Shown piece after piece: positions 3,819 through 59,304 of a stretch of DNA of 64,000 nt. The DNA lies in NCBI GenBank assembly GCA_016928155.1, contig JAFGLG010000007.1:58973-122972 (forward strand). The letters run 5' to 3'. Every line of letters starts with the position of its first letter. The first letter of the stretch is position 1. Source of the DNA: Candidatus Woesearchaeota archaeon (GTDB taxonomy: Archaea; Nanobdellota; Nanobdellia; Woesearchaeales; JAFGLG01). The notes under the pieces were generated by a model, which saw only the letters and a list, made by a program, of their open reading frames with translations, searched no databases and had not been told where the DNA came from. A program made the position numbers and the translations under genes.

Positions 3819-3965
3819 TTTAGGAAGGACACCCATCCGGGTTATATAAATATTATGGTGATTAATCACTAATAAGTAGCTAATAGATGATTTAATAAAT
3901 TATTTACAATAATGAAAATATATTGTGTGATGTCTCAGAAAACTCTTTTACCATAAATGGTCTTG

Positions 3966-5684
3966 TCAATTGTGTTCATGCATAGGATGTTCATGGCCCA
4001 TGCCTTTCCTATGCCCTATATTCTCTATATGGATAATCTTCTCTTTCAGGAACTTGTTCATGCTCATCCTGTTCTTCTCAATCATGGTCGAGAAATGCTT
4101 GCCTCCCAAGAAATGGGGCATGATGACATAGGTGGCACCGGCATCGTAAAGCTTGACAGCATCATCTATCTGATGGGAGACCACTGTGATTATCACCTTG
4201 CTGTTCACCTCTTTCACTTTGCTGATGATGAGAAGATTGGTCTCAGTTATCGGGATGGTTGATATTATCATCTTTGCTGAGGCATAATCAAGCTCGTTGA
4301 GAAGCTCTGAATCATTCGCGTCCCCATACCTGCATTCATACCCTTCCTTTGACAGGTTGGTGATGACTTCAGGATCATAATCCACAATAAGGAACCTCTT
4401 CTTTATCTTCTTCAATGACTCGAGGATATCAAAGCCGATCCTGTTGTAGCCGAAAAGGATGATGTCATGCTTGTCCTCCCTATGATGCCTGTGCTCGTCA
4501 ACCTTCTTCCCTTCTCTTTCGAACAATGAAAGATATGGGGAAAGGATCGGATAGATCCTGTTGGAATACAATATCATGTAAGTGGAGCCAGCAAAGGTTA
4601 TCAGGCCGACAGCTGTGACCAAAGAGAGGATTTCATTGCTCACATGGCCGACAGAGACTCCCATTGTCACGACAATCAATGAGAACTCGCTTATCTGGGC
4701 CACAGTCAGGCCTGCAAGGAAGCTGTTCCTCTTAGTATAACCAAGAAGGCCCATCAGGATCATCACAATGATAGGGTTGCCGATAAGCACAAACAAGGAG
4801 AGCAGGATGATGATGCCCATGTTCTGGAGAATATTCGAGAAGACCATCTGCGAGCCGATCATGATGAAGAACAGGATGATGAAGAAATCCCTCAGCGGCT
4901 TCAGCTTTGAGCTTATCTCAAAATGATAAGGGGACAATGAAAGGGTGATGCCTGCAAGCAGGGCGCCAGCCTCTATCGAGAAGTTCAAGTAATAGAATAC
5001 AGAGGAGACAGCAAAGCACCAGCTTATAGAGAACAAGAGCAGGAACTCCTGGGATCTCGCGATAATCTTGGTCAATGAAGGCAGGATGTATATCGTCAGG
5101 GCAAACAGGACAAGAATGCCGCCGATGCCTTTAAGGACAGTCTCAACAGCCATGGAAGCCAGATCAGTGCCGTTATTCAATGATGAGATGACCAGCAGGA
5201 CAATGATTGCGATGAAATCCTGGATGATGAGGAATCCTATGGATATCCTGCCGTAAAGGGATTCAAGATCCCTCTTGTCAGACAATAATTTCATGATGAC
5301 AATCGTGCTGCTGAATGCAAGGGCTATCGAGATATAGAAAGACACTATGTTCGAGAATCCCATCATCTTTGCGATGAAGAAACCTATCGAAGTAGTGAAG
5401 AGGACCTGGCCCACTCCTGTGATGAGGGAGATCTTGCCGACCTCCTTAATGACTTTAGGATTTAGATTGATGCCGACAAAGAAAAGCAGGAGTGCAACAC
5501 CGATATGGGAGAAGGCAGTGAAGGTCTCAACAGAATCAATGATGTTCAGCAGGAAAGGGCCTGCTACAATGCCGCTGATTATGTAACCTATTATGACTGG
5601 CTGCTTGAGGATCTTGGCCACGCCAGTGATCAAGATAGTGAGGACCAGGATCTTGCTCAGTTCCACAAAAATCTCAGGATCCAT
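3966..5684 (-). CDS. CPA2-family cation:proton antiporter (Kef-type) with C-terminal TrkA-N/RCK domain
   Basis: 572 aa. About 12 hydrophobic segments are followed by DIILFGYNRIGFDILESLKK...FLIVDYDPEV...GDANDSELL, a Rossmann-type RCK motif. Confidence 0.85.
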   Translation of the reverse strand: MDPEIFVELSKILVLTILITGVAKILKQPVIIGYIISGIVAGPFLLNIIDSVETFTAFSHIGVALLLFFVGINLNPKVIKEVGKISLITGVGQVLFTTSIGFFIAKMMGFSNIVSFYISIALAFSSTIVIMKLLSDKRDLESLYGRISIGFLIIQDFIAIIVLLVISSLNNGTDLASMAVETVLKGIGGILVLFALTIYILPSLTKIIARSQEFLLLFSISWCFAVSSVFYYLNFSIEAGALLAGITLSLSPYHFEISSKLKPLRDFFIILFFIMIGSQMVFSNILQNMGIIILLSLFVLIGNPIIVMILMGLLGYTKRNSFLAGLTVAQISEFSLIVVTMGVSVGHVSNEILSLVTAVGLITFAGSTYMILYSNRIYPILSPYLSLFEREGKKVDEHRHHREDKHDIILFGYNRIGFDILESLKKIKKRFLIVDYDPEVITNLSKEGYECRYGDANDSELLNELDYASAKMIISTIPITETNLLIISKVKEVNSKVIITVVSHQIDDAVKLYDAGATYVIMPHFLGGKHFSTMIEKNRMSMNKFLKEKIIHIENIGHRKGMGHEHPMHEHN

Positions 5685-6653: not shown

Positions 6654-7019
6654 TCAGATGAGGATGACATCAAGATCCTTGATCCTTGAGAAATGCCTGT
6701 CACAGGTCATGATAGGGATCTTGTGATTGATGCAGGTTGCTGCAAGGAAGATGTCCAGCTTGCCGGTCGGTTTGCCTTTCATATAAAGTGAAGCTTCCAA
6801 GTCTGCACTCTTGATTGCTGTCTCCTTGTCAAAAGGCAGGACTTCAACTGAGTTGATGAATCCCTTGATGAGCTCTTTCTGCTTTATGCAGACGAGAAGC
6901 TCATTGACTGTGATGGAGCTGACTGCAAAGGCCTTAGACTCCAGATGATCCCTTATCGCAGCACCTTTCTCTGTACCTGCCAATAATTCGATGACTGCAG
7001 AGGTGTCAAGCAGAATCAT
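6654..7019 (-). CDS. vapC: PIN-domain toxin VapC
   Basis: MILLDTSAVIELL start, conserved acidic positions and a C-terminal MTCDRHF motif. It overlaps the upstream antitoxin by 14 nt. Confidence 0.85.
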   Translation of the reverse strand: MILLDTSAVIELLAGTEKGAAIRDHLESKAFAVSSITVNELLVCIKQKELIKGFINSVEVLPFDKETAIKSADLEASLYMKGKPTGKLDIFLAATCINHKIPIMTCDRHFSRIKDLDVILI

Positions 7020-7242
7020 GATGCCTCCTGAATTCCTTCTCGATATCAGACCTTCTGGCTTTGATCTTTGATTTCAATTCCTTAAGATCAATATCTTTCA
7101 GTATGCCGAAGAACCTGTCAGCTGAAGGCGTCCTGCTCTTCGAGATTCTCAGGATGGCCTTGCTGAAGCTCTCATCACCATGCTTCATGCTCTTCAATGC
7201 ATTGTAAGCCTCTTCAGTTATTGTCAATGATTTTATTGCCAT
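7006..7242 (-). CDS. vapB: VapB-type antitoxin
   Basis: 78 aa. MAIKSLTITEEAYNALKSMKHGDESFSKAI is typical of archaeal VapB partners. It is translationally coupled to vapC. Confidence 0.7.
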   Translation of the reverse strand: MAIKSLTITEEAYNALKSMKHGDESFSKAILRISKSRTPSADRFFGILKDIDLKELKSKIKARRSDIEKEFRRHHDSA

Positions 7243-15948: not shown

Positions 15949-16308
15949 TCACTCCTGCTCAACATCAAGAACATCATAGCGTATGTTCTTTATCTTCCAC
16001 ATGTTCTCAGTGAACCAGATGCTCGGCCTGCAGGACTCGCTGTCGCCTAAAGAAAAATTGACAGACTTTCCATCATTACAAGAGACGGTCCTGGGATGAT
16101 CGCATGCGACATCAAAGCTGAAGAAATGGAAATAGAATATAGTGTGGTACTTTATGCAAGTCCCGCAACTGAAATCACCAGTTGAAGAAGGCGCGCAAAG
16201 GCAGGACTGCCTATTGCATTCTGTGTTTGCAGGAACAAGAAAACCAGCTATCAAGCCAAGAACAACAACAGCAAGTGCAATCAATGAATACAAAAGACTC
16301 CTTATCAT
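15949..16308 (-). CDS. N-terminally anchored Cys-rich protein
   Basis: The start at MIRSLLYSLIALAVVVLGLIAGF (16308) lies about 25 nt downstream of a TATA. The longer ORF to 16392 would cover the divergent promoter. Confidence 0.5.
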   Translation of the reverse strand: MIRSLLYSLIALAVVVLGLIAGFLVPANTECNRQSCLCAPSSTGDFSCGTCIKYHTIFYFHFFSFDVACDHPRTVSCNDGKSVNFSLGDSESCRPSIWFTENMWKIKNIRYDVLDVEQE

Positions 16309-16381
16309 AGTATGTGAAAACAAGGCTTCTTTTATAAATGTTTCAGAAAGATTTAATATAAATGCCAAATCCCACCCCATA

Positions 16382-17521
16382 ATGGAACCCATCCTGAAAG
16401 ATGTAGAGAGAAGAAGCTATCAGGGGAGATTCAAGATAGAGATGGATGTGCCAAGCACATCAACACTGACTGATTCTGAAATTGAGAAAACACTGGCGCT
16501 TGCAAGCTGGGAAGTGGATCCAGGGATTTATCCAGGAGAAGGAGGGAGAGACATCCTGGTGCCGAGAGCAAATGGGATGGTGCTCCAGATCAGCGGGATA
16601 GGATACAGAAGGATGACAGCACATGCAGGACAACTGCATATACCTTCATCAGAATTCCATCCGCCATCAGAAGAGAACTTCATGGACAGCATGACAGGAA
16701 CATTGATGACAACAAGCTACGCAGTCGGGAACAGTATAGTAAATTCACAGCCAAAGTACAGAGCATTAGGGACATACACACCTGATGAATTAGAAGAGAA
16801 AGTCCTGAAGACACAGGAAATATCAAGATCAGCATTCACAAAGATGAGAGTGCCAAGAGTAGAAGCATATGGAAGATTTGAGAACGGCACTGGATTCATG
16901 GCAGTCACAGTGCCAGAAGGGAAAAGGCTTGCAGCAGAGATGGTCAATGACCTTCTTGCCAGCTCCAACAACACAGTCCAAGTCGTGATGGACTACTGGT
17001 ACAGGTCAGCTCCCAAGATATTGATGTTTGTTGTTGCGCTGAGAGAACTCCATGATAAAGGATATGCACACCTCCAAGCTCATCTCTCGAATGTCTACAT
17101 AAGAGACAGGCCATATGTGGTTGACTGGGCCACGATGAGGCCCATCGGAACAGGACAGCAGGAAGTTCTGCACAGGACAATGGACCTCAAGAAACCAGCA
17201 GACAATTATGTTGCAGCGTTGACCTCACTATTCGTTCTGCCAGAAAAATTCCGGGTCAAGTTTGGGATGATAGTGCAAGAAGCAGTCATGGAAGCATACT
17301 CGAGAAGCAATAAGGAGATAAAACTGCTTGAAGAAGGAGAGAAAGCTATGCAAGCATTAAGGAAAGACCCTACTGAATTCGAGATAATGGCCCACTGGAT
17401 GAGAAATGAGCTCAATAGGGATGATGCAAACGAATCCAGAGCAAAGAAGAAAGAAAAGATAGGAAGAAATGACCCGTGCCCGTGCGGATCAGGGGCCAAA
17501 TTTAAAAAGTGCTGCGGGTAG
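16382..17521 (+). CDS. SEC-C-motif protein with a possible kinase-like core
   Basis: C-terminal GRNDPCPCGSGAKFKKCCG is a SEC-C metal-binding motif. LHDKGYAHLQAHLSNVYI...VVDWATM loosely resembles a kinase-fold catalytic loop that lacks the Asp. The start at 16382 follows TATA ATTTAATATAAA. Confidence 0.65.
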   Translation: MEPILKDVERRSYQGRFKIEMDVPSTSTLTDSEIEKTLALASWEVDPGIYPGEGGRDILVPRANGMVLQISGIGYRRMTAHAGQLHIPSSEFHPPSEENFMDSMTGTLMTTSYAVGNSIVNSQPKYRALGTYTPDELEEKVLKTQEISRSAFTKMRVPRVEAYGRFENGTGFMAVTVPEGKRLAAEMVNDLLASSNNTVQVVMDYWYRSAPKILMFVVALRELHDKGYAHLQAHLSNVYIRDRPYVVDWATMRPIGTGQQEVLHRTMDLKKPADNYVAALTSLFVLPEKFRVKFGMIVQEAVMEAYSRSNKEIKLLEEGEKAMQALRKDPTEFEIMAHWMRNELNRDDANESRAKKKEKIGRNDPCPCGSGAKFKKCCG

Positions 17522-17562
17522 ACAACAATAATGCATATAAACCCTAATCAGTCCGTGACAAC

Positions 17563-18933
17563 ATGGAAGGCATTGAAGAGACCATAAAAGAATGCATCAG
17601 CGATCCTGAACATTATCCTGATGCAGCTAAAGCCCTGTCAGATCATGTTGCGCCTGGAAATCCCTCACAGCTCCTGCATGCAGCCATGCTCAATGCCATG
17701 CAAGCATATAAGGATTCAAGAAGAAGGAATGGCGAGCTTTCTATTGTGCATCCATTGTGTGTAAGCAGGAAACTATCAGAATTCGGGGAAGACATAGGTA
17801 TAGTCACCGCAGGACTGCTGCATGATCTTCCTGAAGATTTCGGCAAAAGAAATGAGAGAGGATATGCAGTCATGCTTGACAAGGCACTCAAGCAAGCAGC
17901 ACCGGATGAAAGCAATCAAGTTGCAAGGATATCCGCAATACTTGATTCAGTGTCAAAAAGAGGGGCAGAAGACTATTTCACTTACCTAAGAAGAATGTCC
18001 GGGATAAGGGTGAGAAAAAGAGATTTTGAGCATATAAAGAAGATCACAGAAGCACCGATGTCCCTCAAAGGACGCATCGATCCGATTGAATTCTTGCAGG
18101 GTGCAGGAACTTTTACAGGACTGATCTCTGGTACAGAAGACAAACTAGGTTATTTCATAGCAGCAGATGATGACAGGGTGGAACGCCAGATAAGATTCTC
18201 AGAAGAGATCGGCCTGCATTATCATGGGACTCCATTCTCAAGGATAAACCCATTCATCAGAGAGTGGGGATGGACCGGGGCCACGCTCGGCTATATGCTT
18301 CTGACGAACAGAGACGAAGCAGAGGAAGCAAGAAAAGCAAGAGATTTCATCATATCAGAGATCATCAAGCCAGCGCTCAAAATAAAAGCGGTCGATGCAA
18401 TGCATAACCTATCCACAAATGATGTATTCCCCTACATGCATCAGATGTACAGCACATTCAAAGCATGGGCAGTTGCAAGAGAATTCAAGAGAGTATTCAG
18501 ACAAATGCATGATGATCCTGGACCCTACCTGGCAGCACTAGTATCAAAAGGAATAGAAAGCTGCCTTAGGACTAGGACAAGGATGAAAAGAGAATTCAAA
18601 GCCTTATATATGCTTGAACCATTTTATGCCTTGGCAGCTAAGGCTTATGACCTGAAAGGAGGGTTTGACAGGAAGACAAGGAAAGGCGATGTAGGCCTGC
18701 CCTTCTTCCTGGCATGGATAAATGAATGGGATGAAAGAGCTTATGAATATGCAAGATTCATACACAAAACAGGAGAGATACCTGACAATAACTCCATGGA
18801 CAGAAGAAGAGTATTCGGTGATACGATGGCATTCCATTTCCTTTTCAGCAAGCTGGCAAATGTAGAGCATTACCAACCAGACCTGGCCTATACAAAGAGC
18901 CTGACCTCTACTGGTGACATCTTATTGATATGA
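17563..18933 (+). CDS. HD-domain protein, RelA/SpoT (ppGpp-hydrolase) type N-terminus
   Basis: AMQAYKDSRRRNGELSIVHPLCVSRKLSEFGEDIGIVTAGLLHDLPED matches the SpoT/Mesh1 HD signature (H...HP...LLHD..ED). No motif was recognised in the remaining 330 or so aa. Confidence 0.65.
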   Translation: MEGIEETIKECISDPEHYPDAAKALSDHVAPGNPSQLLHAAMLNAMQAYKDSRRRNGELSIVHPLCVSRKLSEFGEDIGIVTAGLLHDLPEDFGKRNERGYAVMLDKALKQAAPDESNQVARISAILDSVSKRGAEDYFTYLRRMSGIRVRKRDFEHIKKITEAPMSLKGRIDPIEFLQGAGTFTGLISGTEDKLGYFIAADDDRVERQIRFSEEIGLHYHGTPFSRINPFIREWGWTGATLGYMLLTNRDEAEEARKARDFIISEIIKPALKIKAVDAMHNLSTNDVFPYMHQMYSTFKAWAVAREFKRVFRQMHDDPGPYLAALVSKGIESCLRTRTRMKREFKALYMLEPFYALAAKAYDLKGGFDRKTRKGDVGLPFFLAWINEWDERAYEYARFIHKTGEIPDNNSMDRRRVFGDTMAFHFLFSKLANVEHYQPDLAYTKSLTSTGDILLI

Positions 18934-20199: not shown

Positions 20200-20649
20200 A
20201 TGAATGATTGGGACATCTTTGAACAGATGAAAAGCATGCAAAGAGAGATGGACAGATTGTTCAGCAACTTCTGGGACCGACCTATGCTGGGATATGAGAG
20301 AGACATAACAAGGGAAAGATCGATGGTGCCTGCTGAAACAAGGATGCCTGCCTGCCACATGCAGGAGACAGAGACTGGCATTATAGCTGATATAGAACTC
20401 CCAGGAGCAAGCAAGGATGAGATCGAGCTGAATGTGACAGACGACATGATCGAGGTTAAAGTCGAGCAGAAAAAAGAAAAGAAAGACAAGCACAGCCACT
20501 ACATGTCAAGCCAGCAGTTCTACAGACGAATAGGATTTCCCCAGAAAGTGGATTCCAGCAAAGCAAAAGCTAGCTATAGGAACGGCATACTGAGAGTAGA
20601 AGCACCGAAGATACAGCTGAAGGGAAGCAAGAGACTGCAGATCGAATAA
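20200..20649 (+). CDS. small heat-shock protein (Hsp20/alpha-crystallin)
   Basis: ACD core: GIIADIELPGASKDEIELNVTDDMIEVKV...FYRRIGFPQKVDSSKAKASYRNGILRVEAPK. SD is AGGAGGTGA. Confidence 0.9.
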   Translation: MNDWDIFEQMKSMQREMDRLFSNFWDRPMLGYERDITRERSMVPAETRMPACHMQETETGIIADIELPGASKDEIELNVTDDMIEVKVEQKKEKKDKHSHYMSSQQFYRRIGFPQKVDSSKAKASYRNGILRVEAPKIQLKGSKRLQIE

Positions 20650-20674
20650 ATCCATTTTTTTTCAAGGTGACGAT

Positions 20675-21214
20675 ATGAACAAAGAAAAAGAACATGGAAA
20701 GGAACATGGAAAAGAGCATGAAAAGAAGTATGAAAAGGAGCATGAAAAAAAACAAGCGCCGGACCATGCTGAATGCAACCAGAAGATAGGAGAGCTGACA
20801 CAGGATCTCCAGAGGCTGCAGGCAGAGTTCGAGAACTACAAGAAAAGATGCGACAAGGACAACCAGAGGGAAATAATGAAAGGCCTCGGGGGATTTGTTG
20901 CAAAATTGCTGCCTATCATAGACAGTCTTGAGATAGCAAGGAGAGACTCAGATGGGATAAATCTCATCTATGCACAATTATACTCAATGCTGGAGAAGGA
21001 AGGGCTGAAGAGAATACCCACAGAGAAATTCAATCCATACATGCATGAAGTCATGATGACAGAGGAGACAGAGAATCCAGACGAGGACCATAAGATAATA
21101 GAAGTGTTCCAGACAGGATATATGCTGAGGGACATGATATTAAGGCCAGCAAGAGTCAAGATACGGAAACATGTTCGACCAAACCAGGATCAAGGGCAAA
21201 CCCAAGATAGATGA
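20675..21214 (+). CDS. grpE: nucleotide exchange factor GrpE
   Basis: LQRLQAEFENYKKR...LLPIIDSLEIA...FNPYMHEVMM...GYMLRDMILRPARVKI. Confidence 0.9.
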   Translation: MNKEKEHGKEHGKEHEKKYEKEHEKKQAPDHAECNQKIGELTQDLQRLQAEFENYKKRCDKDNQREIMKGLGGFVAKLLPIIDSLEIARRDSDGINLIYAQLYSMLEKEGLKRIPTEKFNPYMHEVMMTEETENPDEDHKIIEVFQTGYMLRDMILRPARVKIRKHVRPNQDQGQTQDR

Positions 21215-21731
21215 AGAGAAAATCAGGATAACAAGAAAAACCCCTGAAAAAGATATGCTCAGGTATGGAGACTATGACTGCCACGGATGCACACACTGCT
21301 GCGAATACGGAGGAGGCATAGTGCTGGAGCATGAGATCGAGCCCATGGCAAAGAGGCTCAGGATCACAAAAGAGGAATTCAGGAAAGAATACCTCGACGA
21401 GATAGAGAGATTCAACAAGAAAGTGTGGAAGTTCAAGGTCAAGAGCAGGAAAGGACTTCCATTCGGCTCCTGTGTATTCCTGGAAAAGGGATGCAAGATA
21501 CACGATGTGAAGCCACTGTACTGCAGGATAACGACCTGCGGAAAGCTGGCAAGGAAACAGCTGCTCTGGTTTGACATCAACCATCTTGTAGAGCCGACAG
21601 ACCCAGAGGCCATAAGGCAATGGGCGCAGTATCTCCAATACGGGGAGCTCATAGAAGGCGGGGAATTGGAAGAATTGGTGCCTGACAAGGAGAGGCTGAA
21701 GAAAATACTGAGCTATGAGATATTCAAATAA
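21171..21731 (+). CDS. YkgJ-family (UPF0153) cysteine-cluster protein
   Basis: CHGCTHCC plus GSCVFLEKGCKIHDVKPLYCRITTC. It overlaps the grpE 3-prime end. Confidence 0.7.
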   Translation: MFDQTRIKGKPKIDEEKIRITRKTPEKDMLRYGDYDCHGCTHCCEYGGGIVLEHEIEPMAKRLRITKEEFRKEYLDEIERFNKKVWKFKVKSRKGLPFGSCVFLEKGCKIHDVKPLYCRITTCGKLARKQLLWFDINHLVEPTDPEAIRQWAQYLQYGELIEGGELEELVPDKERLKKILSYEIFK

Positions 21732-21755
21732 GATGCATAAGATGAAGGTGATAAG

Positions 21756-22085
21756 ATGAAGATCCAGGTCGAAAGCGAGCAGAAAAGAAAAATATTCCTC
21801 AGACCAGACATGATACTCAAATACCTGATAACAGAAAATGACGAGCTCAACACACTGATAATGTGCGGAAATGCCGAGATAGACTTCAGGATGAGCGACC
21901 AAGGGCTCTACGAAGCGCTCGGGTCGATAAAAGAATATGACGGGTTCAGGCATCCCAAGCTCACAAAGCTGCTCGAGGTAGCTGAGATCATGCCATTCTC
22001 GAAGATGGCCGGGCAGCCCAGGCACATACTCACAGAGGATAAAGTGGAAGAACTGAGGGCAAAAGCCCTCAAGGAAGGTGAATAA
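21756..22085 (+). CDS. hypothetical protein
   Basis: 109-aa ORF inside the chaperone operon, with SD GAAGGTGA. Confidence 0.55.
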   Translation: MKIQVESEQKRKIFLRPDMILKYLITENDELNTLIMCGNAEIDFRMSDQGLYEALGSIKEYDGFRHPKLTKLLEVAEIMPFSKMAGQPRHILTEDKVEELRAKALKEGE

Positions 22086-22087
22086 AG

Positions 22088-22432
22088 ATGGAAAAGAAGA
22101 TAAATCTCACAATAAACGAAGGCGAGGCATTCTTTGCCCATGAGCTCAGTGTGAATTTCAACCCGCTCCAGTTCATGCTCGACTTCAAATGCATAACACC
22201 AAGGATAGACCCGAGGATGAGGGAGAGCATGCAAATGCACATAAAGCACAATGTCATAATGCTCGACCCATACCACCTCAAGCAGATCCTGCCCATGATG
22301 CAGGACTCGCTGCAGAGATATGAGAAGGAATTCGGGAAGATAGAGAAGCCGAAAAGCCTCAAGAAGATGGACAAGAAGCAGACAAAGAAAGAAGATGGCA
22401 CAATAGAAGCAGTGCCGACATATCTAGGGTGA
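22088..22432 (+). CDS. DUF3467-like protein
   Basis: [25 protein letters not shown]...[30 protein letters not shown] follows the DUF3467 pattern as I recall it. Confidence 0.55.
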
Positions 22433-22437
22433 TGAAC

Positions 22438-24306
22438 ATGGCAAAAATCATAGGAATAGATCTAGGAACAAGCAACTCAGCAGCAAGCGTACTTGAGGCA
22501 GGAAGGCCTAAGATAGTGCCCAGCTCAGAAGGGACAAGCATGTACGGGAAGGCATTCCCGAGCGTAGTGGCATTCACAAAAGACGGGCAGATGCTTGTCG
22601 GCGAGCCGGCAAGAAGACAGGCAGTCTCGAATCCGGAAGGCACCATCATGGGAGCAAAGAGGAAAATGGGGACGAGCCACAAGTACAATATCCACGGGAA
22701 GCAGCACACACCCCAGCAGATAAGCGCATACATACTGCAGAAGATAAAGAAAGACGCAGAGGAATTCCTGGGAGAGAAAGTGGACAAGGCAGTGATCACA
22801 GTCCCGGCCTATTTCGACGATAACCAGAGGCAGGCGACAAAGGATGCAGGAGCGATAGCAGGCTTGGAAGTCGTCAGGATAATCAACGAGCCCACAGCAG
22901 CAAGCCTGGCATTCGGCATAGACAAGAAAGAGAAGGACCAGAAGATACTAGTATTCGACCTTGGCGGCGGCACGCTTGATGTGACAGTCATGGAGTTCGG
23001 CGACGGGGTCTTCGAGGTCAAGTCGACATCAGGAGACACGCAGCTCGGCGGGCAGGACATGGATGAGGCGATAATAAAATTCATAGTCGATGACTTCAAA
23101 CAGAAAGAGAGAGCTGACCTGAGCAAGGACACTGTAGCGATGCAGAGGGTGAGAGAGGCAGCAGAGAAGGCAAAGATAGAGCTCAGCACAACACTGGACA
23201 CAGACATAAACCTGCCATACATCACAGCAGACCAGAGCGGGCCAAAGCACCTTGTGATGAAGATGAACAGGGCAAAGCTCGAGGAGCTGATAGACCCGAT
23301 AGTCAAGAAATGCAAGGGCCCCCTGGAGCAGGCGCTGAGGGATGCAAAGCTCACAAAGAATGACATAAGCAGGATAATCCTCGTCGGAGGACCGACAAGG
23401 ATGCCTATAGTCAGGGCATTTGTCGAGAACATAATCGGGAAGCAGGCAGAGAGAGGGGTCGATCCCATGGAGTGCGTAGCGATGGGAGCAGCGATCCAGG
23501 GAGGCGTGCTTGCAGGCGAAGTGAAGGATGTTCTATTGCTGGATGTGACCCCGCTTTCGCTCGGGATAGAGACGCTGGGCGGGATATTCACAAAACTGAT
23601 CGAGAGGAATACCACAATCCCCACAAAGAAGAGCCAGGTATTCAGCACAGCAGCTGACAACCAGCCCGCAGTCACAATCAGGGTGTTCCAGGGAGAGAGG
23701 CCAATGGCAAACCACAACAAGCTTCTTGGGCAATTCGACCTTGTGGGCATACCGCCTGCTCCAAGAGGGATACCTCAGATCGAGGTGACATTCGACATCG
23801 ATGCCAACGGCATAGTCAATGTCAATGCAAAAGACAAAGGGACTGGCAAGGAACAGAAGATAACGATAACAGCCACCCAGAAGCTCAGCGACGAAGAGAT
23901 TGAGAAGATGAAGAAGGATGCAGAGGCGCATTCGGACGAGGACAAGAAAAGGAAAGAAGAGATAGAGACCATAAACAACGCAGACACTCTTGTCTATTCT
24001 ACTGAGAAGATGCTTGAAGAGCTGAAAGGAAAGTATGATGAATCAAAGATCAAGGATATAAAGGACAGGATAGCAGAGCTGAAGAAGCTTCTTGAGCCAG
24101 AGAAGAAAGATGTCGGAGCGGTCAAATCCAAAGTGGATGAGATCAACAAGATAGTGCAGGAAGCATCTACTGAACTATACAAGCAGGCAGCTGCAGCCCA
24201 AGAGGCACAGGCTCAGGCAGGAGCACAGGGGCAGGAAAAGGCAAAAGGCCCAGATGAGAAGACAGTGGATGCAGAATACACAACAGAAGACGACAAGAAG
24301 AAATGA
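22438..24306 (+). CDS. dnaK: chaperone DnaK (Hsp70)
   Basis: [31 protein letters not shown] and other canonical Hsp70 motifs are present throughout. Confidence 0.97.
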
Positions 24307-24315
24307 AGTGACCTG

Positions 24316-24885
24316 ATGAAAGAGACAGAGACAAAATTCCAGCTTCAGGATCCTGGAGCGATGAGGCAGAAACTGCTGAGCATAGGATTCAAGAGCAAGG
24401 GAAGGCATCTCCAGGTCAACAGAAAATTCAATGACAAGGATGACAATTTCGGGCCGCACAAGGGCAGGCTGTTAAGGATAAGGGTGGCGGACAAGTGCAC
24501 GCTCACATCCAAGGCCGGCAAAAGCGTGGAGAAAAACATAAAGACCCTAGACGAATACGAGACAGAGATATCAGACCCTGAAAAGACTGAAAAGATACTG
24601 AACATGCTCGGATTCCACCTGGATGAGGTAATGGAGAAATACCGTGAGGCTTTCCAGAAAAGAGATGTCGAGGTGGTGATAGATGAAGTCCCATTTCTAG
24701 GTGCATGGATGGAGATAGAAGGGGATCATGAATCCATAGAGAGGACAGCAGAAGAGCTGGGCCTTGACATGAAAGACGCCATAAGCAGCAGCTACGGGAC
24801 ATTATGGAGAGGATACAAGGAAAAGCACAAGATTGATATAAGGGACTGCACCTTCGGGGAGAACCATGGCCAAAGACTACTATGA
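24316..24885 (+). CDS. CYTH-domain protein (CyaB-type class IV adenylate cyclase / triphosphatase family)
   Basis: N-terminal ETETKF (ExExK), LLRIRV, YETEI and EVVIDEVPFLGAWMEIEG follow the CYTH beta-barrel pattern. Confidence 0.7.
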   Translation: MKETETKFQLQDPGAMRQKLLSIGFKSKGRHLQVNRKFNDKDDNFGPHKGRLLRIRVADKCTLTSKAGKSVEKNIKTLDEYETEISDPEKTEKILNMLGFHLDEVMEKYREAFQKRDVEVVIDEVPFLGAWMEIEGDHESIERTAEELGLDMKDAISSSYGTLWRGYKEKHKIDIRDCTFGENHGQRLL

Positions 24886-25978
24886 GACACTCGGTGTGAG
24901 CAAGAAAGCGACCCGTGAAGAGATAAAATCCGCATATAAGAAGCTGGCGAAGAAATACCATCCTGATGTCAGCAAGGAGCCGGATGCGGCTGAGAAGTTC
25001 AAGGAGATCAACGAGGCAGCTGCAGTGCTCGGCGATGACCAGAAAAGACAGCAGTATGACCAGTTCGGCACAGCAGACACAAGCGGCTTTGACTTCTCTG
25101 GATTCGAGAGCGCGTTCAGGGGATTCGGCGGATTCGACTTCGACTCCATATTCGATTCATTCTTCGGCGGAGGATTCGGAAGAAGAGAAAGAGGGCCGAG
25201 AAGAGGATCTGACCTGCTCTATACAATGGAGATCAGCCTGGAAGATGCTTTCAACGGGACAGAGAAGACGATAATCATCCCAAAGACAGAGACCTGCACA
25301 AAATGCAACGGCTCAGGAGCAGAATCAGATGCGGACATCGAGACGTGCAACACGTGCAATGGCACAGGGATGGTCAGAAGGACAAGAAGGACCCCATTCG
25401 GCATATTCTCAACAAGCTCAGCGTGCGACAGATGCAGAGGGGAAGGCAGGACCATTAAGAGATACTGCCCTGTCTGCGACGGCAATGGAATTGTCAATAA
25501 AACCAAGAAGATAAATGTCAAGATACCTCAAGGGATCGACAGCGGGAACAGGCTCAGGGTTGCCGGAGAAGGAGAGGCAGGAGAGAAGGGAGGACCACCA
25601 GGCCATCTTTATGTCGAGGTGCATGTCAAGGAGCATAAGCTCTTCGAAAGGAAAGATGATGACCTCTACACAGAAATACCAATAAGCTTTGTCACAGCAG
25701 CTCTTGGAGGGGAGACCCATGTCGATTCATTCACTGGAAAAGTCACGATGAAGATACCTGCCGGAACCCAGAGCCACACATTGTTCAAGGTGAAGGATAA
25801 GGGTATGCCAAGGCTGCAGAGAGGAGGGCACGGGAACCTTCTCGTGAGAACGATGATACAGACACCTACAAAGCTCACTGTCAAGCAGAAAGAGCTCCTC
25901 AAGAAATATGCAGAGGCAGGCGGGGACAAGGTGCAGGAGAAGAAGTTCTTCGACAAGCTCAAGGATGCATTCTCATGA
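24866..25978 (+). CDS. dnaJ: co-chaperone DnaJ
   Basis: J-domain DYYETLGV...KKYHPD, a G/F region, and four CxxCxGxG zinc-finger repeats. Confidence 0.95.
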   Translation: MAKDYYETLGVSKKATREEIKSAYKKLAKKYHPDVSKEPDAAEKFKEINEAAAVLGDDQKRQQYDQFGTADTSGFDFSGFESAFRGFGGFDFDSIFDSFFGGGFGRRERGPRRGSDLLYTMEISLEDAFNGTEKTIIIPKTETCTKCNGSGAESDADIETCNTCNGTGMVRRTRRTPFGIFSTSSACDRCRGEGRTIKRYCPVCDGNGIVNKTKKINVKIPQGIDSGNRLRVAGEGEAGEKGGPPGHLYVEVHVKEHKLFERKDDDLYTEIPISFVTAALGGETHVDSFTGKVTMKIPAGTQSHTLFKVKDKGMPRLQRGGHGNLLVRTMIQTPTKLTVKQKELLKKYAEAGGDKVQEKKFFDKLKDAFS

Positions 25979-26036
25979 TAAGATCAATGATGTTTAATAA
26001 TATGATAATACTAATAATAAGAATATCAAGAATAAT

Positions 26037-26630
26037 ATGATAAGAGCGATAATATTCGACCTTGACGGGGTATACTTTGACAAGGGAAGCGATGATTTCT
26101 ACATAAACATATCAGAGAAGTTCAATGTGCCACTGGAGAAGGCAAAAGAGGCATTCTTCGGGGAAGAGATGAAGCGGCACAAGAGAGGCGAGACCAGCAA
26201 AGAGGAGTATTGGGGCTGGTTCATAAAAGAGCTCTGCATCGACACGACACCAGAAAAGCTGATAGAGATGATGCGCAAGATGTACCATGCGGATGATAAG
26301 ATAAGGGATCTTGTCAAAGATGTCAGGAGAAAGGGCTTCGAGACGATAGTATGCTCAAATAACTTCCAGGAAAGGGTTGATTTCTTAAGAGATGATTTTG
26401 ATCTTGGCAGTGTGTTTGACCATATCTATTTCTCATGCGAACAAGGAATGCTGAAACCAGGGCTCATAGATGTGATGCTTAATGAGACAGGATTCAGGCC
26501 AGAAGAGATACTGCTGATAGATGACATGGAATACAACTTCAAGGGGTTGGATGAGAAGGGGATAAAATACATGCTTTACCAGGATTTCAGCCAGCTGACT
26601 GAATATCTTAAAGAGATAAGCATTTTATAG
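26037..26630 (+). CDS. HAD-superfamily hydrolase
   Basis: Motif I IIFDLDGV, with a later SNN... and LLIDD motif. Confidence 0.8.
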   Translation: MIRAIIFDLDGVYFDKGSDDFYINISEKFNVPLEKAKEAFFGEEMKRHKRGETSKEEYWGWFIKELCIDTTPEKLIEMMRKMYHADDKIRDLVKDVRRKGFETIVCSNNFQERVDFLRDDFDLGSVFDHIYFSCEQGMLKPGLIDVMLNETGFRPEEILLIDDMEYNFKGLDEKGIKYMLYQDFSQLTEYLKEISIL

Positions 26631-27001
26631 AAAATATCAAAAAGCATATATACTTCTTAACTATTGTTAATCAAAACCCCAACCCCCAACTATTTTTTCT
26701 TTTTTGTCAGATACCAGCAGACATGTGTCCTATCTCGCATTCATTAATCGCTTTTTTTGATGTGGCAGAATTTTTCGGGCAACCTTCCTAATCAATCCAT
26801 AATAAGTCAATGATTGGAGTGAATCTTATGTTAATCTTTATTTTTTACTATATAGAAATTAACTCTAATATCAACAAAATTTATAAATAGGTATTACTAT
26901 TATTTAGTAAGAATAAGGCTTCATCCCTAGAAGATGGTGGTTCATCCCAAGCCACTGTAATCTATCGGAAATCTGATGCAAGCCTGACTTAGTCATGCGG
27001 A

Positions 27002-28411
27002 ATGATTGATATGTGGAACATGAGAAAAACAAGACTGGAAGAACGGATAAAGGAATTAGAGGCAGAAGCAGCCAGACATGAAACCATGATCGGTGCATCA
27101 GCCGAGATAAGGAAAGCCTTGAACGCAGATGATGAACTTATGCCAAGGCTTGATGCAGTCCTTGACATACTCAGGGAATTCTACGGCCAAAACACACAGC
27201 TAGGCATAATGCTGATGGATGAGGGAGGCCAGAGACTCAAGCTGATGAACTACAGAGGGGAACATCATCCATCGCTCGACGGGCTTGTCGTAGAGGTCGG
27301 AAAGGGCATAAGCGGCGCAGCAGCCCGTGAAAAAAGGACAATCAATGCCCCTGATGTCAGGTCACTGGGGTGGAAGAATATCTACATCGGGCCTGAAAGC
27401 ACAAGGTCAGAGATGGCGATACCCCTGATCTTCGAGGAGCATGTCTATGGCGTGCTTAATGCAGAGAGGCATGAGACAGATGCATTCACAGAACAAGACG
27501 AGGGCATGCTACAGATGATCGCAGATTCCATAGCGCCGGTACTGGCAAACAGCTTCTGGAAGAATTCAAAAAGATATGACTCAATGACCGGAGTCTACAG
27601 CTCAGATTACATAAGGACCCTGCTGGCATATACTTCAGGGGACAGACCAGAGAAAGCCACAAAAATACTCGAAAGCAGCCACATTGGCAGCCTGTGCTCA
27701 TCTGATGAGATCATTGTCGGGATATATGACCTTGATTACCTCAAGACCATAAACGACAGCACAGAGGACCACGCAATAGGGGACCAAAGGCTCACTGCAA
27801 TCGCGCACATACTCAGGGATGCTGTCGGAGACAAGGGGCTTGTAGCAAGATACGGCGGAGATGAGTTTGTCGTCGTGATGTTCGACACGAATGCAAAGGA
27901 GTATGAAGGGATACAGGCGACAATAGACAAGAGGATCAAGAGATGGAATGATGATTATAAGGCAAAGATAGCAGAAGGGAGCGAAGCAGACCTGCTGCCA
28001 GACCTCAGCGTATCAAAGGGGTATGTCCAGATCTCAAGATACAATGATGTGACAAGAGGGCTTGAGAAGGCAGACAAGATTCTCTATGAAGAGAAGAACA
28101 GGAGAGCGACAGAAGTGGCCCTGATAGAGATACCAGGACTTTCTGACGGAAGATACACGCCCGAGCAGGTATATGATATTGAACAGGAAATCATGAAATC
28201 GATCAATGGAGACGGATGGGCGCAGAGATTCGGGTCATTGATACAGGTGGGCATGGTCACAAACCCTGACAAGATAAGGAATAAACTTCAGGGGACCCAT
28301 GGAAGATTCAGGCTGCCTGATGGTTCGCAGCTGCAAGAGCCGCAATATTTTGAGCTCATCAGAATGAAAAAGAACGGAAATGGCCATGGGCCGAATGGCA
28401 CATCAGGCTGA
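27002..28411 (+). CDS. GAF-GGDEF protein (diguanylate-cyclase-like)
   Basis: N-terminal coiled coil. GAF core: GISGAAAREKRTINAPDV...EMAIPLIFEEHVYGVLNAE. GGDEF domain: DSMTGVY...IYDLDYLKTIND...GDQRLTAIAHIL...ARYGGDEFVVVMF...LEKADKILYEEKNRR. Confidence 0.85.
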   Translation: MIDMWNMRKTRLEERIKELEAEAARHETMIGASAEIRKALNADDELMPRLDAVLDILREFYGQNTQLGIMLMDEGGQRLKLMNYRGEHHPSLDGLVVEVGKGISGAAAREKRTINAPDVRSLGWKNIYIGPESTRSEMAIPLIFEEHVYGVLNAERHETDAFTEQDEGMLQMIADSIAPVLANSFWKNSKRYDSMTGVYSSDYIRTLLAYTSGDRPEKATKILESSHIGSLCSSDEIIVGIYDLDYLKTINDSTEDHAIGDQRLTAIAHILRDAVGDKGLVARYGGDEFVVVMFDTNAKEYEGIQATIDKRIKRWNDDYKAKIAEGSEADLLPDLSVSKGYVQISRYNDVTRGLEKADKILYEEKNRRATEVALIEIPGLSDGRYTPEQVYDIEQEIMKSINGDGWAQRFGSLIQVGMVTNPDKIRNKLQGTHGRFRLPDGSQLQEPQYFELIRMKKNGNGHGPNGTSG

Positions 28412-28888
28412 TCATCCCAATAGCTTTCTCACTTCTTTGTGCACAAATTTCTCCCAACCCCCTGCTTTCTTCATGATGTGTCTTATCTTTGTTGCAGAGA
28501 GACCATAGTATCTAGGGAGGTGGATGACTTTAAAGCCTGCTTTCTTAAACAACTTCTTGACCAAGGGGGTGCCGGAATAGACAACATCAAAATGACCGAC
28601 AATCTTCCTGACATGGGCTGCGTACCTGCTGTCTGACTCGATATCCCTGATAGCCATCAGCCTATAGTTCCTGATCCCCTCTTTCTTCAAGGTGTTATGC
28701 ACCATACGTCTCCTCAGCCCCGCATGATAAGGATCATGGACCGTGCCAGAGAGCTGGGAGCTCCCTATCACAATCTTGACAAGAGAAAATCTCCTCGACA
28801 AATCCTTCACGACCTTGAGGTGCCCCTTATGGAAAGGCTGGAACCTGCCGATGAACAATGCGACACCACTCTTTTTTGACGAATCCAT
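28412..28888 (-). CDS. archaeal-type nicotinamide-nucleotide adenylyltransferase
   Basis: ALFIGRFQPFHKGHLKVVKDL (the (T/H)xGH motif) plus IVIGSSQ. Length is 158 aa. Confidence 0.8.
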   Translation of the reverse strand: MDSSKKSGVALFIGRFQPFHKGHLKVVKDLSRRFSLVKIVIGSSQLSGTVHDPYHAGLRRRMVHNTLKKEGIRNYRLMAIRDIESDSRYAAHVRKIVGHFDVVYSGTPLVKKLFKKAGFKVIHLPRYYGLSATKIRHIMKKAGGWEKFVHKEVRKLLG

Positions 28889-29101
28889 TTTAATCTGGCA
28901 TCAGTGAAAAACAATGCTGTTTATAAATCTTTTCTAATCTGTTTTGTCGTCGAGAAAATTTATTTTCGTTTGGCATTAGTGACGAATCTCGTCTAGGAAA
29001 AAGTTTTTTCAGCAAAGTTTAAATAGTAGTTGGGCTTGGATGCAATCATTGATTATCAATCAAAAAATGAGGTTTATAAACCAAAAAACTGGGGTGAAAA
29101 G

Positions 29102-30337
29102 ATGAATAGACTTCTAGTAATGTCAGTTCTGATGCTAACAATAATATCCCTTTCCGGATGCGTCCAGACTCCGAATGAGGGGATTGTCAATGTGACAATC
29201 GAGGATTCTGAAGATGCCGGTATGACAACCACGACAGGCGATGCTGTTGCGGATGCTGACGAGGCAGATGCATACGAGAGCGGGGAAGATGAGACAGCAG
29301 AGGCCGAAGATGAAGAATCTGAAGCAGAGACCTCCAAGACTGCAAAATACAAGATAGCTGTCACAGAAGGCGAGCTCGTATCACTGAAACCGAAAGCCGT
29401 CGATCCAGATGCAGATACCATAAAATACATGTTCTCAAAGCCGCTCGATTCAGAAGGGAAGTGGCAGACAGAGACAGGTGACGCCGGAGAATATTATGTC
29501 GATGTCACTGCGACAGACGGCAAGCTCTCAGCCACCCAGACAGTCCTTGTAGTTGTCAATTCGGCAAACAAGGCGCCTGTCATGACAGAGTTAGAGGACA
29601 TAACAGTGAATATGGGCGAGACTGTGAAGATCAGCCCGAAAGCCACTGACCCTGATGGGGACAAGATAAGCTTCTCATTCAGCGGATGGATGACCAAGCC
29701 TTCCTACACCACCCAGAAGGGTGATGAGGGCAAGCACAAGGTCACAGTCACTGCGACAGACGGCACAAGCAGTGTCTCCAAGGACATGTATGTGACAGTC
29801 ATCAAAGAGAACCACGCGCCTGAGATCACAAGCCTCACTGCAGAGCCAGTGCTGGAGAAAGATACAGTGGTACTGGATGTCGAGGCTGAGGATGAGGACG
29901 GCGATGAGGTCTCAATAGTGTTCCCTGAACCATTCAATGATGATGGAGAATGGCAGACCAAAGTGGGAGATGCAGGGACATACAGGGTTGTAGTGACTGC
30001 CACAGACGGAGAGAAGAGCGCTTCAAAAGAGGTCATTGTCAAGGTCAATGCCCTGAACAATGCGCCAGTGCTCGAGCCTATCAAGGACATCACAGTCAAG
30101 GAAGGAGAGACTGTAACCCTGAATGTCAAGGCATCAGATCCGGACGGGGACAAGGTCACAGTGATCATCTCAGGATGGATGAACACGAACACCAAGAAGA
30201 CAGGCTATGATGATGCAGGAGAGTACCAGGTCACAATCAAGGCATCAGACGGCCAGGTGGAGACAACACAGACTGTGGAGATAACAGTCCTTGACCAGAA
30301 TAGGCCGCCGGTCTTTGTAGATATCGTGCAAGGCTAA
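29102..30337 (+). CDS. surface lipoprotein with four tandem Ig/cadherin-like repeats
   Basis: MNRLLVMSVLMLTIISLSGC lipobox, an acidic linker, then a unit of about 90 aa repeated four times (VTEGE.V.L.PKA.DPDGD...GDAGEY.V.VTATDG). Confidence 0.7.
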   Translation: MNRLLVMSVLMLTIISLSGCVQTPNEGIVNVTIEDSEDAGMTTTTGDAVADADEADAYESGEDETAEAEDEESEAETSKTAKYKIAVTEGELVSLKPKAVDPDADTIKYMFSKPLDSEGKWQTETGDAGEYYVDVTATDGKLSATQTVLVVVNSANKAPVMTELEDITVNMGETVKISPKATDPDGDKISFSFSGWMTKPSYTTQKGDEGKHKVTVTATDGTSSVSKDMYVTVIKENHAPEITSLTAEPVLEKDTVVLDVEAEDEDGDEVSIVFPEPFNDDGEWQTKVGDAGTYRVVVTATDGEKSASKEVIVKVNALNNAPVLEPIKDITVKEGETVTLNVKASDPDGDKVTVIISGWMNTNTKKTGYDDAGEYQVTIKASDGQVETTQTVEITVLDQNRPPVFVDIVQG

Positions 30338-30361
30338 TCTTTTTTTTTTCTTTTCTTTAAA

Positions 30362-31522
30362 ATGTCTAAAAAGGTATTTTTGGGAATATTGATGATTCTG
30401 CTGATACCTGCAGTCCTATCCCTGAAATTCACAGTGACAGAAGGAGACCTTTTCAAGCTGAAAGTGACAACATCAGATCCAGACAATGACAGGGTGAGCT
30501 TAGTATATTCTGATCCTCTCGATGACAAAGGAGAATGGCAGACAAGTATCGGGGACGCAGGAGACTATAAGATAAAGATAGGGGCGACAGACGGAAAAGA
30601 TGTAGCGTATGAGACAATAGATCTTGAAGTGGCGAAATATGTCAATTATGAGCCAGAGATAACCACACAGCCCAATTATCATATAGACGAGGGCCAGACA
30701 CTTGAGCTCAAGGTTGCAGTGAGAGACAAGAACGGAGACAAGATCGACATCACATACTCCGGTTACATGAGTGCAGAGTCTAAATACATAGACTATGATC
30801 AGGCAGGGAACTATACATCGTTTATCACAGCAACAGACGGCGTCAATACAGCCAAGGAAGAGATCAATATATTCGTGAACAACATCAACCGGGCACCAGT
30901 GATCGCTAACCTTTCCGACATCAAGGTCAGCGAGGGAGACCAAGTCTTGATACAGCTCGATGCATTCGATCCAGACGGGGATGAGCTCCACTTCTGGTAC
31001 GAAGAGAATGTCACAGGCGCAAACATAACCGACAGAGTGTTCTACTGGACACCGCCGCATTATCTGCTGGACAACAAGCCTCTCAAATTCTATGAGCAAG
31101 AGCCAAGCAACACCTACTTCATAACATTCGGTGTGAGCGATGGAGCAGATGAGGCATACCAGCAGGTTGGGATAAGCGTGCAGAACAAGAACCTTGTGCC
31201 TGTGCCTGTATCGATACAGCCTGCAGAAAGCCACATCCTGATATGGACAGGAGAGTCAGTCAAGTTCTTTGCGAATGTTACAGACTGGGATGAGGATGAA
31301 CTGGAGTATACATGGAGCTTCGGGCCGCTCTCCAAGATGACAGGCACACAGGCAATAGAAAAACATTATGCCAAAGCAGGCGACCATGAAGTCAGGCTCG
31401 AAGTATCAGATGGCAAGGACAAGATAATCAGGACATGGAAAGTGCATGTTTCAGAACCATACAAGCCTCTTGAGCCAGCATATGTTGAAAGGACATCAAA
31501 GACATATGTGCTTTGGTCCTAA
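30362..31522 (+). CDS. surface protein with the same repeat family plus a PKD-like C-terminal domain
   Basis: Signal anchor MSKKVFLGILMILLIPAVLS. Repeats: VTEGDLFKLKVTTSDPDNDRV...GDAGDYKIKIGATDG. The C-terminal ELEYTWSFG...GDHEVRLEVSDG is PKD-like. Confidence 0.7.
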   Translation: MSKKVFLGILMILLIPAVLSLKFTVTEGDLFKLKVTTSDPDNDRVSLVYSDPLDDKGEWQTSIGDAGDYKIKIGATDGKDVAYETIDLEVAKYVNYEPEITTQPNYHIDEGQTLELKVAVRDKNGDKIDITYSGYMSAESKYIDYDQAGNYTSFITATDGVNTAKEEINIFVNNINRAPVIANLSDIKVSEGDQVLIQLDAFDPDGDELHFWYEENVTGANITDRVFYWTPPHYLLDNKPLKFYEQEPSNTYFITFGVSDGADEAYQQVGISVQNKNLVPVPVSIQPAESHILIWTGESVKFFANVTDWDEDELEYTWSFGPLSKMTGTQAIEKHYAKAGDHEVRLEVSDGKDKIIRTWKVHVSEPYKPLEPAYVERTSKTYVLWS

Positions 31523-40687: not shown

Positions 40688-41437
40688 ATGCAACCATATC
40701 AAAAAACCATAGAAAAATTCTATCCACAAGCATCACCAATGGAAGACTCCCTGGGGGAGATGCAGACAATGCTGTCAGACATGGGATTCAGATCCGGGCA
40801 GACCCAGATCATCACATCCCTCTGCAGAGATGATATACTAAACCCATTCCATCAATATGTTGAAAGCCTCTGGAAAGATACAGACGGATCTTTCAGGCTA
40901 GGCGGTCTTGTGGGCTTTCCAACAGGGGGCGCGACAGGCATGGGTGCAGCGATGCATCATGCGCCTAACACAAAAGGCCCTGAAAGATATCTCATTTTTG
41001 CCGGAGCCCATGTCTCTATAGGACAGAATGGAGTCTTTGGAGACCTGACAAGAAATTATAGAGCGGGGAATACAGGTGCATGCGGGGCAGCACTGAAATT
41101 CCTTGGCAGATTAGAAAGCGATCCAGAATACAAACCAACACCCAACAGGGCAGACAGGGAGCAATATTATGCAGAGACAACTCTCCTGAAGAATGCGGCT
41201 TCAATATTGGGCCATGAATCCAGGAGCGATAGGGTGCATGCGCTTACCCAGCATTCAGCCAAGCATATTGATAGTGATCTTGACGAGACACTTGCAGCTA
41301 CTGGGATCACGAAGAATGGAACACCATTTGCACTTATACTGGCAGATTTCCTGCACACACCAGAAGGATTGTTCCTACAGCTCAATAAGGATAGGAGTGT
41401 CATCCAGAATGAGAACGGAGTATACAGCTTCAACTAA
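40688..41437 (+). CDS. hypothetical protein
   Basis: 249-aa ORF. No motif recognised. Confidence 0.55.
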   Translation: MQPYQKTIEKFYPQASPMEDSLGEMQTMLSDMGFRSGQTQIITSLCRDDILNPFHQYVESLWKDTDGSFRLGGLVGFPTGGATGMGAAMHHAPNTKGPERYLIFAGAHVSIGQNGVFGDLTRNYRAGNTGACGAALKFLGRLESDPEYKPTPNRADREQYYAETTLLKNAASILGHESRSDRVHALTQHSAKHIDSDLDETLAATGITKNGTPFALILADFLHTPEGLFLQLNKDRSVIQNENGVYSFN

Positions 41438-59059: not shown

Positions 59060-59205
59060 TTAGTCTCATTATTATATAAATCTATTGATAACCTCTAGGT
59101 GACCTAAATCGAGTTTAACATTGGACCCTGTTATCAGCCCAGAGCGAACAAAGAATATTGTAGGCGAAAGCCTGCAAGACAGGGTTCGACTGAAAGGAGA
59201 AAGCG

Positions 59206-59268: not shown

Positions 59269-59304
59269 CACCCTGTGGGAAGTTCAGGGTGGGCGGGAAA
59301 AATT

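Follow-up and report, generated by a model that had tools for sequence, protein, structure and literature searches.

An uncultured archaeon with a small genome of the DPANN type carries, next to its chaperone genes and as the lineage-specific cargo of a variable slot, a gene for a strongly diverged GGDEF protein that we read as a soluble, dimeric diguanylate cyclase, gated by a GAF sensor domain and free of product inhibition. We put the probability of this overall reading at about 0.6. The gene lies at 27002..28411 (+) of a 64,000-nucleotide stretch (hereafter the window) from Candidatus Woesearchaeota archaeon (assembly GCA_016928155.1, contig JAFGLG010000007.1, positions 58,973 to 122,972). 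In a 2018 census a single archaeal GGDEF protein was known, and a 2023 review described the cyclases as "almost exclusively" bacterial and their product, cyclic di-GMP (c-di-GMP), as undetected in archaea. Sidorov et al. (Mol Microbiol 126:576, September 2026; PMC13725321) have since reported GGDEF proteins in archaeal isolates, together with 20 encoded by metagenome-assembled genomes (MAGs), mainly DPANN; their set includes GGDEF_MRE50 of Methanocella arvoryzae, GAF-GGDEF architectures and unconventional inserts. A first-pass annotation of the window, made from the sequence alone, had described archaeal GGDEF domains as rare to absent, a statement that this work overtakes. The protein described here is an unusually diverged further example of the archaeal GGDEF cyclases published in 2026 and not a new kind; its interest lies in its orphan status, the loss of the inhibitory site next to an intact active site, an orphan tail and a defined slot in a chaperone block.

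The open reading frame (ORF) is complete, with 469 codons and a stop, as first described, and a public gene call (P0001, on a 271-kb contig) points to Met7 (27020) as an alternative start, giving 463 amino acids (aa). Profile searches bore out both of the domains that the first-pass annotation had proposed, with scores above the Pfam and NCBIfam cutoffs. GGDEF was matched by PF00990 at residues 235-368 (E = 2.8e-18, 66.6 bits, cutoff 23.8) and by TIGR00254 (66.3 bits, cutoff 37.4), and GAF by GAF_2 at residues 50-181 (E = 1.3e-15, 58.2 bits, cutoff 28.6), by Pfam GAF (45.7 bits, cutoff 22.4) and by GAF_3. The PF00990 match spans positions 31-158 of a profile of 161; an insert in the GGDEF domain, described below, accounts for the unmatched first 30. 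The best sequence matches in the PDB are diguanylate cyclases, including DosC (8.9e-11); the second-best is 6d9m, a Geobacter GGDEF fusion deposited under a name that refers to a GAF domain.

An AlphaFold2 model built on an alignment of 58 sequences (mean predicted local distance difference test score, pLDDT, of 81.8) gives the layout of the protein on the plus strand. It opens with a long helix at residues 2-40 (27005..27121; pLDDT 92-96), where a coiled coil had been proposed: the helix itself is predicted with a pLDDT of about 95, and it is probably a dimerizing coiled coil. The GAF core follows at residues 46-163 (27137..27490), supported by GAF_2, GAF and GAF_3, PDB sequence matches and Foldseek, and then a stalk or signaling helix at residues 164-191 (27491..27574) that runs on without a break into the wide turn of the GGDEF domain. 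This diguanylate-cyclase-type domain, supported by Pfam, NCBIfam, PDB matches, AlphaFold2 and Foldseek, occupies residues 192-376 (27575..28129), and its residues 231-370 have block mean pLDDT values that mostly lie between 82 and 97. The remaining residues, 377-469 (28130..28408), form a partly helical tail with a Gly/Asn-rich end and low pLDDT, below 50 from residue 405 on. This tail is an orphan: it has no homologue but itself among 5.8 billion sequences and no Pfam match, and inspection by eye found no convincing PilZ-like RxxxR...DxSxxG pattern in it.

Foldseek gave a probability of 1.00 to many diguanylate cyclases. The top matches of the model are cyclases with a sensor, namely PadC (5llw), Dcsbis (4zmu), which is a GAF-GGDEF protein, and LOV-DGC (8c05). 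Target-normalized template modeling (TM) scores were 0.68-0.76 to GGDEF-only chains and 0.72-0.76 to 4wxw, 5euh and 9t28, and TM scores against GAF structures were 0.74-0.86. The doubt that the domain might have another fold is thereby removed, AlphaFold2 and Foldseek both showing a GGDEF fold. The order of sensor, helical stalk, wide turn and GGDEF domain is shared with Dcsbis/PA2771 (4zmu), Lcd1 of Leptospira (5w10), PadC (5llw/5llx) and LOV-DGC (8c05), and we take PadC 5llw and Dcsbis 4zmu to have this sensor-stalk-GGDEF layout. With these bacterial sensor-stalk cyclases the protein presumably also has in common a mechanism in which the sensor sets the register of a dimeric stalk, but it is only 14-25% identical to them and differs in its extra N-terminal helix, the insert before strand beta1 and the C-terminal tail.

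Alignment of the GGDEF domain with 57 relatives shows that conservation is concentrated where a cyclase needs it, with 28 of the 32 columns conserved at 90% or more retained, against 20 of the 91 variable columns. The invariant columns are all held (D193, T196, D243, K248, N251, D252, H257, G260, R283, Y284, G285, G286, E288 and F289), as are the nearly invariant ones (D245, D261, D287 and K365). The motif that gives the domain its name, read as intact in the first-pass annotation, is present as ARYGGDEFVVVMF at residues 282-294. Within it, the active-site hairpin R283-Y-G-G-D-E-F289 (27848..27868, +) consists of invariant residues apart from the nearly invariant D287. The upstream motifs that the annotation had pointed to are likewise in place: alignments put the wide-turn motif D193-S-M-T196 (27578..27589, +) directly after helix 164-191, and the G-D motif at residues 260-261. 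The latter closes a metal- and substrate-binding segment identified from conserved columns and the DosC alignment (D243, D245, K248, N251, D252, H257, G260 and D261; 27728..27784, +). With D243, D245 and K248, this segment has the Asp that binds Mg2+ where beta1 ends (DxD) as well as the Lys of DxFK, and it keeps both guanine-binding residues, Asn (N251) and Asp (D261, an Asp and not a Ser). Further on, K365-N-R-R368 (28094..28105, +) provides the predicted phosphate and transition-state Lys, nearly invariant and aligned with that of DosC, and Arg residues close to it. At K+4, where the canonical motif (AKxxGR) has Arg, the protein has Ala369, with R367 and R368 at +2 and +3, and the closest relatives share this K-R-R-A pattern (they read K-R-R-A-S).

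The inhibitory site (I-site) is, in contrast, degenerate. The first-pass annotation had seen no RxxD motif upstream of the active site, and the alignment of 57 relatives indeed puts G276-D-K-G279 (27827..27838, +) in its place. Both functional residues are changed (R276G and D279G), although the Arg is conserved in at least 90% and the Asp in at least 80% of the relatives; DosC carries RssD at this position. With both RxxD residues lost, the enzyme would not be product-inhibited. A second departure is a lineage-specific insertion within residues 208-235 (27623..27706, +), which corresponds to gaps in all relatives. It amounts to about 15 residues and not the roughly 40 first estimated, the spacing from T196 to D243 being 46 residues as opposed to about 31 in the relatives. 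The insert sits between helix alpha1 and beta1 and is modeled as two helices (216-225 and 229-233; block mean pLDDT 69-82). From the topology of the fold, it would lie on the face where the I-site normally sits, at the sheet end that faces away from the active site. In addition, Asp202 (R202D, within S200-S201-D202) takes the place of an Arg that relatives conserve after the wide turn, and the loop before the GD motif is remodeled by one extra residue and by G256D, which removes the Gly of a GH motif (DosC alignment and the 57 relatives).

These features suggest a mechanism of the following kind. The N-terminal helix and the GAF domain, possibly with the stalk, would form a dimer in which GAF senses a small ligand, and the signal would run down helix 164-191 into the wide turn D193xxT196, so as to reposition the two GGDEF domains for the condensation of two GTP into c-di-GMP. 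The base of each GTP would be contacted by N251 and D261, Mg2+ by D243 and E288, and the phosphates by K365 with R367/R368. Lacking an I-site, the enzyme would escape inhibition by its product, and its output would depend on the GAF signal, expression and dilution. As a precedent, archaeal GGDEF proteins, GAF-GGDEF proteins from MAGs among them, gave cyclase-dependent read-outs in Salmonella or E. coli (PMC13725321). With PleD and WspR (1w25, 2v0n and 3bre), the reference diguanylate cyclases regulated through an I-site, the protein has in common the fold and, by equivalence of motifs, the Asp that binds Mg, the Asn and Asp that bind the base, RxGGDEF and the C-terminal-helix Lys; in PleD we take the equivalent residues to be D327, N335, D344, R366, E370 and K442. 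It differs from PleD and WspR in having GDKG for the RxxD I-site, a GAF and not a REC input, and the K+4 Arg (PleD R446) out of register.

Several observations weigh against an active cyclase of this kind. Asp202, the 15-residue insert before beta1, G256D with the extra residue near the base pocket, and Ala369 at K+4 are deviations of possible consequence. The protein forms the longest terminal branch, at 2.42 substitutions per site (median 0.085), of a tree built from 154 GGDEF domains, and its GGDEF profile score is the lowest of the 154 (87.7 bits, all others reaching at least 135.7); its Pfam GGDEF score of 66.6 bits compares with 164.6 for P0002. No orthologue was found, and selection is therefore not measurable. 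In the most sensitive of the assays used by Sidorov et al., a cyclase signal came from only three of seven MAG-encoded proteins (PMC13725321). The window itself offers no partner: scans of about 50 long and 50 small ORFs found no EAL, HD-GYP or PilZ domain in its 64 kb, as the first-pass annotation had noted, and Rfam found no c-di-GMP riboswitch there. Finally, the sampled words are absent from the three metatranscriptomes of the same study, one of which has no contig anywhere on the locus, dnaK included, and is uninformative.

A rival explanation is a degenerate, non-catalytic GGDEF domain that serves as a GTP-binding sensor or as a scaffold acting through protein contacts, perhaps by means of the orphan tail ("class III" sensu Sidorov et al.). 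The extreme divergence of the domain, the residue changes that follow the wide turn, the insert, G256D and the missing K+4 Arg all lend themselves to this explanation, as do the catalysis-independent phenotypes seen with several archaeal GGDEF proteins (PMC13725321). We nevertheless consider it a possible but rather doubtful alternative. The residues known to contact metal, base and transition state are all retained save for the K+4 Arg, which has two Arg next to it, and conservation is concentrated on the contact columns (28/32 versus 20/91). With its I-site absent, the domain would not be a c-di-GMP receptor of the inactivated-GGDEF type, and there is no downstream enzymatic domain for it to regulate.

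An active GGDEF-type cyclase might also make another product, such as 3',3'-cyclic GMP-AMP (cGAMP) or c-di-AMP, as Hypr GGDEF enzymes do. The protein has the GGDEF fold in common with the Hypr cGAMP synthases (GacA/GSU1658, 6d9m); we take 6d9m to be GSU1658/GacA. The remodeled loop before the GD motif, with its extra residue and G256D, is what speaks for this option. The specificity position, however, holds the canonical Asp (D261) and not the diagnostic Ser of Hypr enzymes (the criterion of PMC13725321), and N251 is kept. The retention of D261 favors GTP and disfavors cGAMP synthesis of the Hypr type, and on sequence grounds we would expect specificity for GTP, which makes another product very unlikely.

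The GAF domain would gate the cyclase. Its sequence matches in the PDB include Ta0848 (9e-9) and the cAMP-binding GAF domain of Lcd1 (1.9e-7). The best GAF structure matches hinted at a free-Met-sulfoxide reductase (fRMsr), a role that we rejected since the domain contains no cysteine, the catalytic Cys positions being Ser or absent. The likeness to the cAMP-binding GAF of Lcd1 also raised control by cAMP through a neighboring CYTH/CyaB-like gene. We set this idea aside as speculative because no diagnostic binding residues are established and the slot of the CYTH gene is filled by HD or HAD genes in relatives. In this respect the protein differs from bacterial GAF cyclases such as Lcd1, no signature for binding cyclic nucleotide monophosphates being established in its GAF domain.

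A GGDEF gene in an archaeal contig invites the suspicion that the contig is chimeric or contaminated by bacterial DNA, or that the gene came from bacteria very recently and is foreign to the biology of the archaeon, the more so as GGDEF domains are overwhelmingly bacterial, the named homologues are all bacterial and the gene is missing from six syntenic relatives. The evidence at the locus makes this explanation barely credible. In an independent assembly (Logan contigs, from one sediment metagenome, the sole one that holds the sequence), a 20.3-kb contig is identical to positions 24988-31000, with zero mismatches and both gene junctions spanned, at an even depth of 59.7 (59.3 for the flanking contig). 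The stop codon of the GGDEF gene abuts that of a convergent gene for an archaeal-type NMN adenylyltransferase (NMNAT; 28412..28888, -; NF002243, 134.9 bits, cutoff 127), whose named relatives come from Thermoplasmatales, Woesearchaeota, Aenigmarchaeota, Nanoarchaeota and Nitrososphaerales. Synonymous codon usage of the GGDEF gene is typical of the window (z = +0.49), as is its G+C content (GC) of 0.486, in agreement with the earlier remark that the gene resembles its neighbors. None of 1.84 billion representatives is a homologue with more than 35% identity, which leaves no recent donor, and a search for mobile-element borders around the gene found no flanking repeats other than short imperfect ones.

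The wider surroundings, described as archaeal in the first-pass annotation, bear this out. Besides NMNAT, the window encodes an AlaXM equivalog and an archaeal-type GdhA (GdhA_Arch), and its tRNAs, which fit the 71-position model in full, measure 95 and 158 nt and so imply introns; synteny with other archaeal contigs is described below. On five lines of evidence we conclude that the gene is archaeal and native and that the contig, which the annotation had allowed might be bacterial or chimeric, is neither. The putative promoter of the gene, read from the sequence, is a TATA-like element, TTTATAAATA, at 26880..26889 (+); oligo-T runs at about 26690-26708, behind the upstream HAD gene, precede it, and the NMNAT gene has a mirror-image TATA upstream. 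We considered whether the 5' leader, about 90 nt long, contains a regulatory RNA and dismissed the idea, the fold z-score being -1.63 and Rfam giving no match.

To the left, the gene is anchored by a chaperone block (20200..25978, +; hsp20, grpE, CxxCxxCC, a 109-aa unknown, DUF3467, dnaK, [CYTH] and dnaJ), identified by profiles and tblastn, with tblastn identities of 37-73% to contigs L009-L013; NMNAT is the anchor on the right. Six further archaeal contigs show synteny across the order hsp20-grpE-CxxCxxCC-109 aa-DUF3467-dnaK-[slot A]-dnaJ-[slot B]-NMNAT, with identities of 70-73% for DnaK, 51-56% for DnaJ and 44-49% for NMNAT. Two of these six are flanked by genes for Rpb7, Spt4, S24e, S27e, S19e and L31e. 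Slot B, which separates dnaJ from NMNAT, is occupied in the window by the GAF-GGDEF gene together with that of a HAD-family phosphatase (26037..26630, +; identified by profile, and matching the HAD of L011 only weakly, at 27%). The same slot is empty in three of the six relatives and otherwise holds a 298-aa unknown, a Fic gene with a 297-aa unknown, or a 236-aa unknown (one relative each). None of the six has a GGDEF gene at slot B, and the gene is therefore lineage-specific cargo of a variable slot. The unknowns of L011 and L012 are unrelated to the GAF-GGDEF protein and to each other; the comparison left out the 236-aa unknown of L013.

Slot A, between dnaK and dnaJ, varies as well, holding an HD protein (three relatives), a HAD, an HD-HAD fusion or nothing, and a CYTH gene in the window. 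Both slots of the archaeal hsp70 block thus gather small nucleotide- and phosphate-processing enzymes, and two relatives have NUDIX and inositol-monophosphatase genes inside the block. The CYTH/CyaB-like gene of the window (24316-24885, +) lies between dnaK and dnaJ, with a 20-nt overlap with the dnaJ start; it matches TIGR00318, "class IV adenylate cyclase" (67.7 bits, cutoff 57.95), and Pfam CYTH (2e-15), and its product could be a triphosphatase instead of a cyclase. In L012, a Fic-domain gene (3201-4055, -) stands between NMNAT and dnaJ, beside the hsp70 operon. This adjacency may be functional, since in animals the Fic enzyme FICD is an AMPylator of BiP, an Hsp70 protein.

A word-indexed search of 5.8 billion proteins returned a best non-self match of just 26% identity, phmmer run exhaustively against 1.84 billion cluster representatives found no relative above 35% other than the protein itself, and scans of species genomes and of JGI metagenomes found nothing close. 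The first-pass annotation had looked to a phylogeny of the GGDEF domain for a bacterial donor; in the tree of 154 domains the protein falls in no supported clade, and with this placement, the longest branch and best relatives that are only 26-35% identical, we refrain from naming one. For comparison, the archaeal GGDEF cluster of Sidorov et al. lies near WspR and AdrA (PMC13725321). The GAF-GGDEF part aligns co-linearly with GAF-GGDEF proteins of other organisms, of which the few with a named source are bacterial, and the alignment suggests that it was probably acquired as one unit. Since the donor is untraceable and codon usage is native, this acquisition would have taken place long ago or have been followed by fast evolution.

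Like the archaeal proteins of Sidorov et al., the protein combines a GGDEF domain with canonical signature residues, a verified archaeal neighborhood and a GAF-GGDEF architecture, and it has no accompanying canonical turnover or receptor genes that are known. Unlike them, it is without a relative above 35% identity in the databases searched, lacks an I-site and has both the 15-residue insert and the orphan tail, which is about 93 aa long. One may imagine a minimal, non-canonical cyclic-dinucleotide circuit, with at least two GGDEF-type cyclases including the GAF-gated, feedback-free one, no EAL, HD-GYP or PilZ, and turnover and read-out by undescribed parts (such as the orphan tail, or the CYTH, HAD and HD proteins of the hsp70 slots). 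We regard such a circuit as unlikely; if it were real, its messenger would be tied to the stress or chaperone response. PADLOC found no defense-system match for the GGDEF, CYTH or HAD proteins.

Other parts of the window deserve brief mention. Upstream of the chaperone block, a gene for a SEC-C/SWIM-motif protein is followed by one for a weak SpoT-type HD protein (16142-18933, +), and a VapBC-type toxin-antitoxin pair is found at 6654-7242 (-), where a 121-aa PIN-domain ORF overlaps a 78-aa VapB ORF. To the right of NMNAT, the window encodes an LCIB-type beta-carbonic-anhydrase-like protein (40688-41437, +; PF18599, 3.7e-35) and a protein with FHA and caspase-like Peptidase_C14 domains (56020-57102, +) that matches a PADLOC caspase model (3e-11). 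Positions 58000-64000 may be an integrated foreign element: GC is low there (0.35-0.38, versus about 0.45), and the ORFs deviate in codon usage (z of -1.8 to -3.1) and lack Pfam matches. MazE-like and ParE-like small ORFs lie at the end of this low-GC stretch (63508-64000).

c-di-GMP is undetected in any archaeal cell, and the 2026 work left the origin, partners and physiology of archaeal GGDEF proteins open. One gene alone leaves this overall picture unchanged. It adds a well-anchored case, with a verified archaeal locus, a defined insertion slot, an active site that is intact despite extreme divergence and a selective loss of the feedback site, in a soluble 469-aa protein that is directly assayable. 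Together, the anchored locus, the intact active site and the selective loss of the I-site favor long-term functional retention of a GGDEF protein in this archaeal lineage over a recent bacterial passenger.

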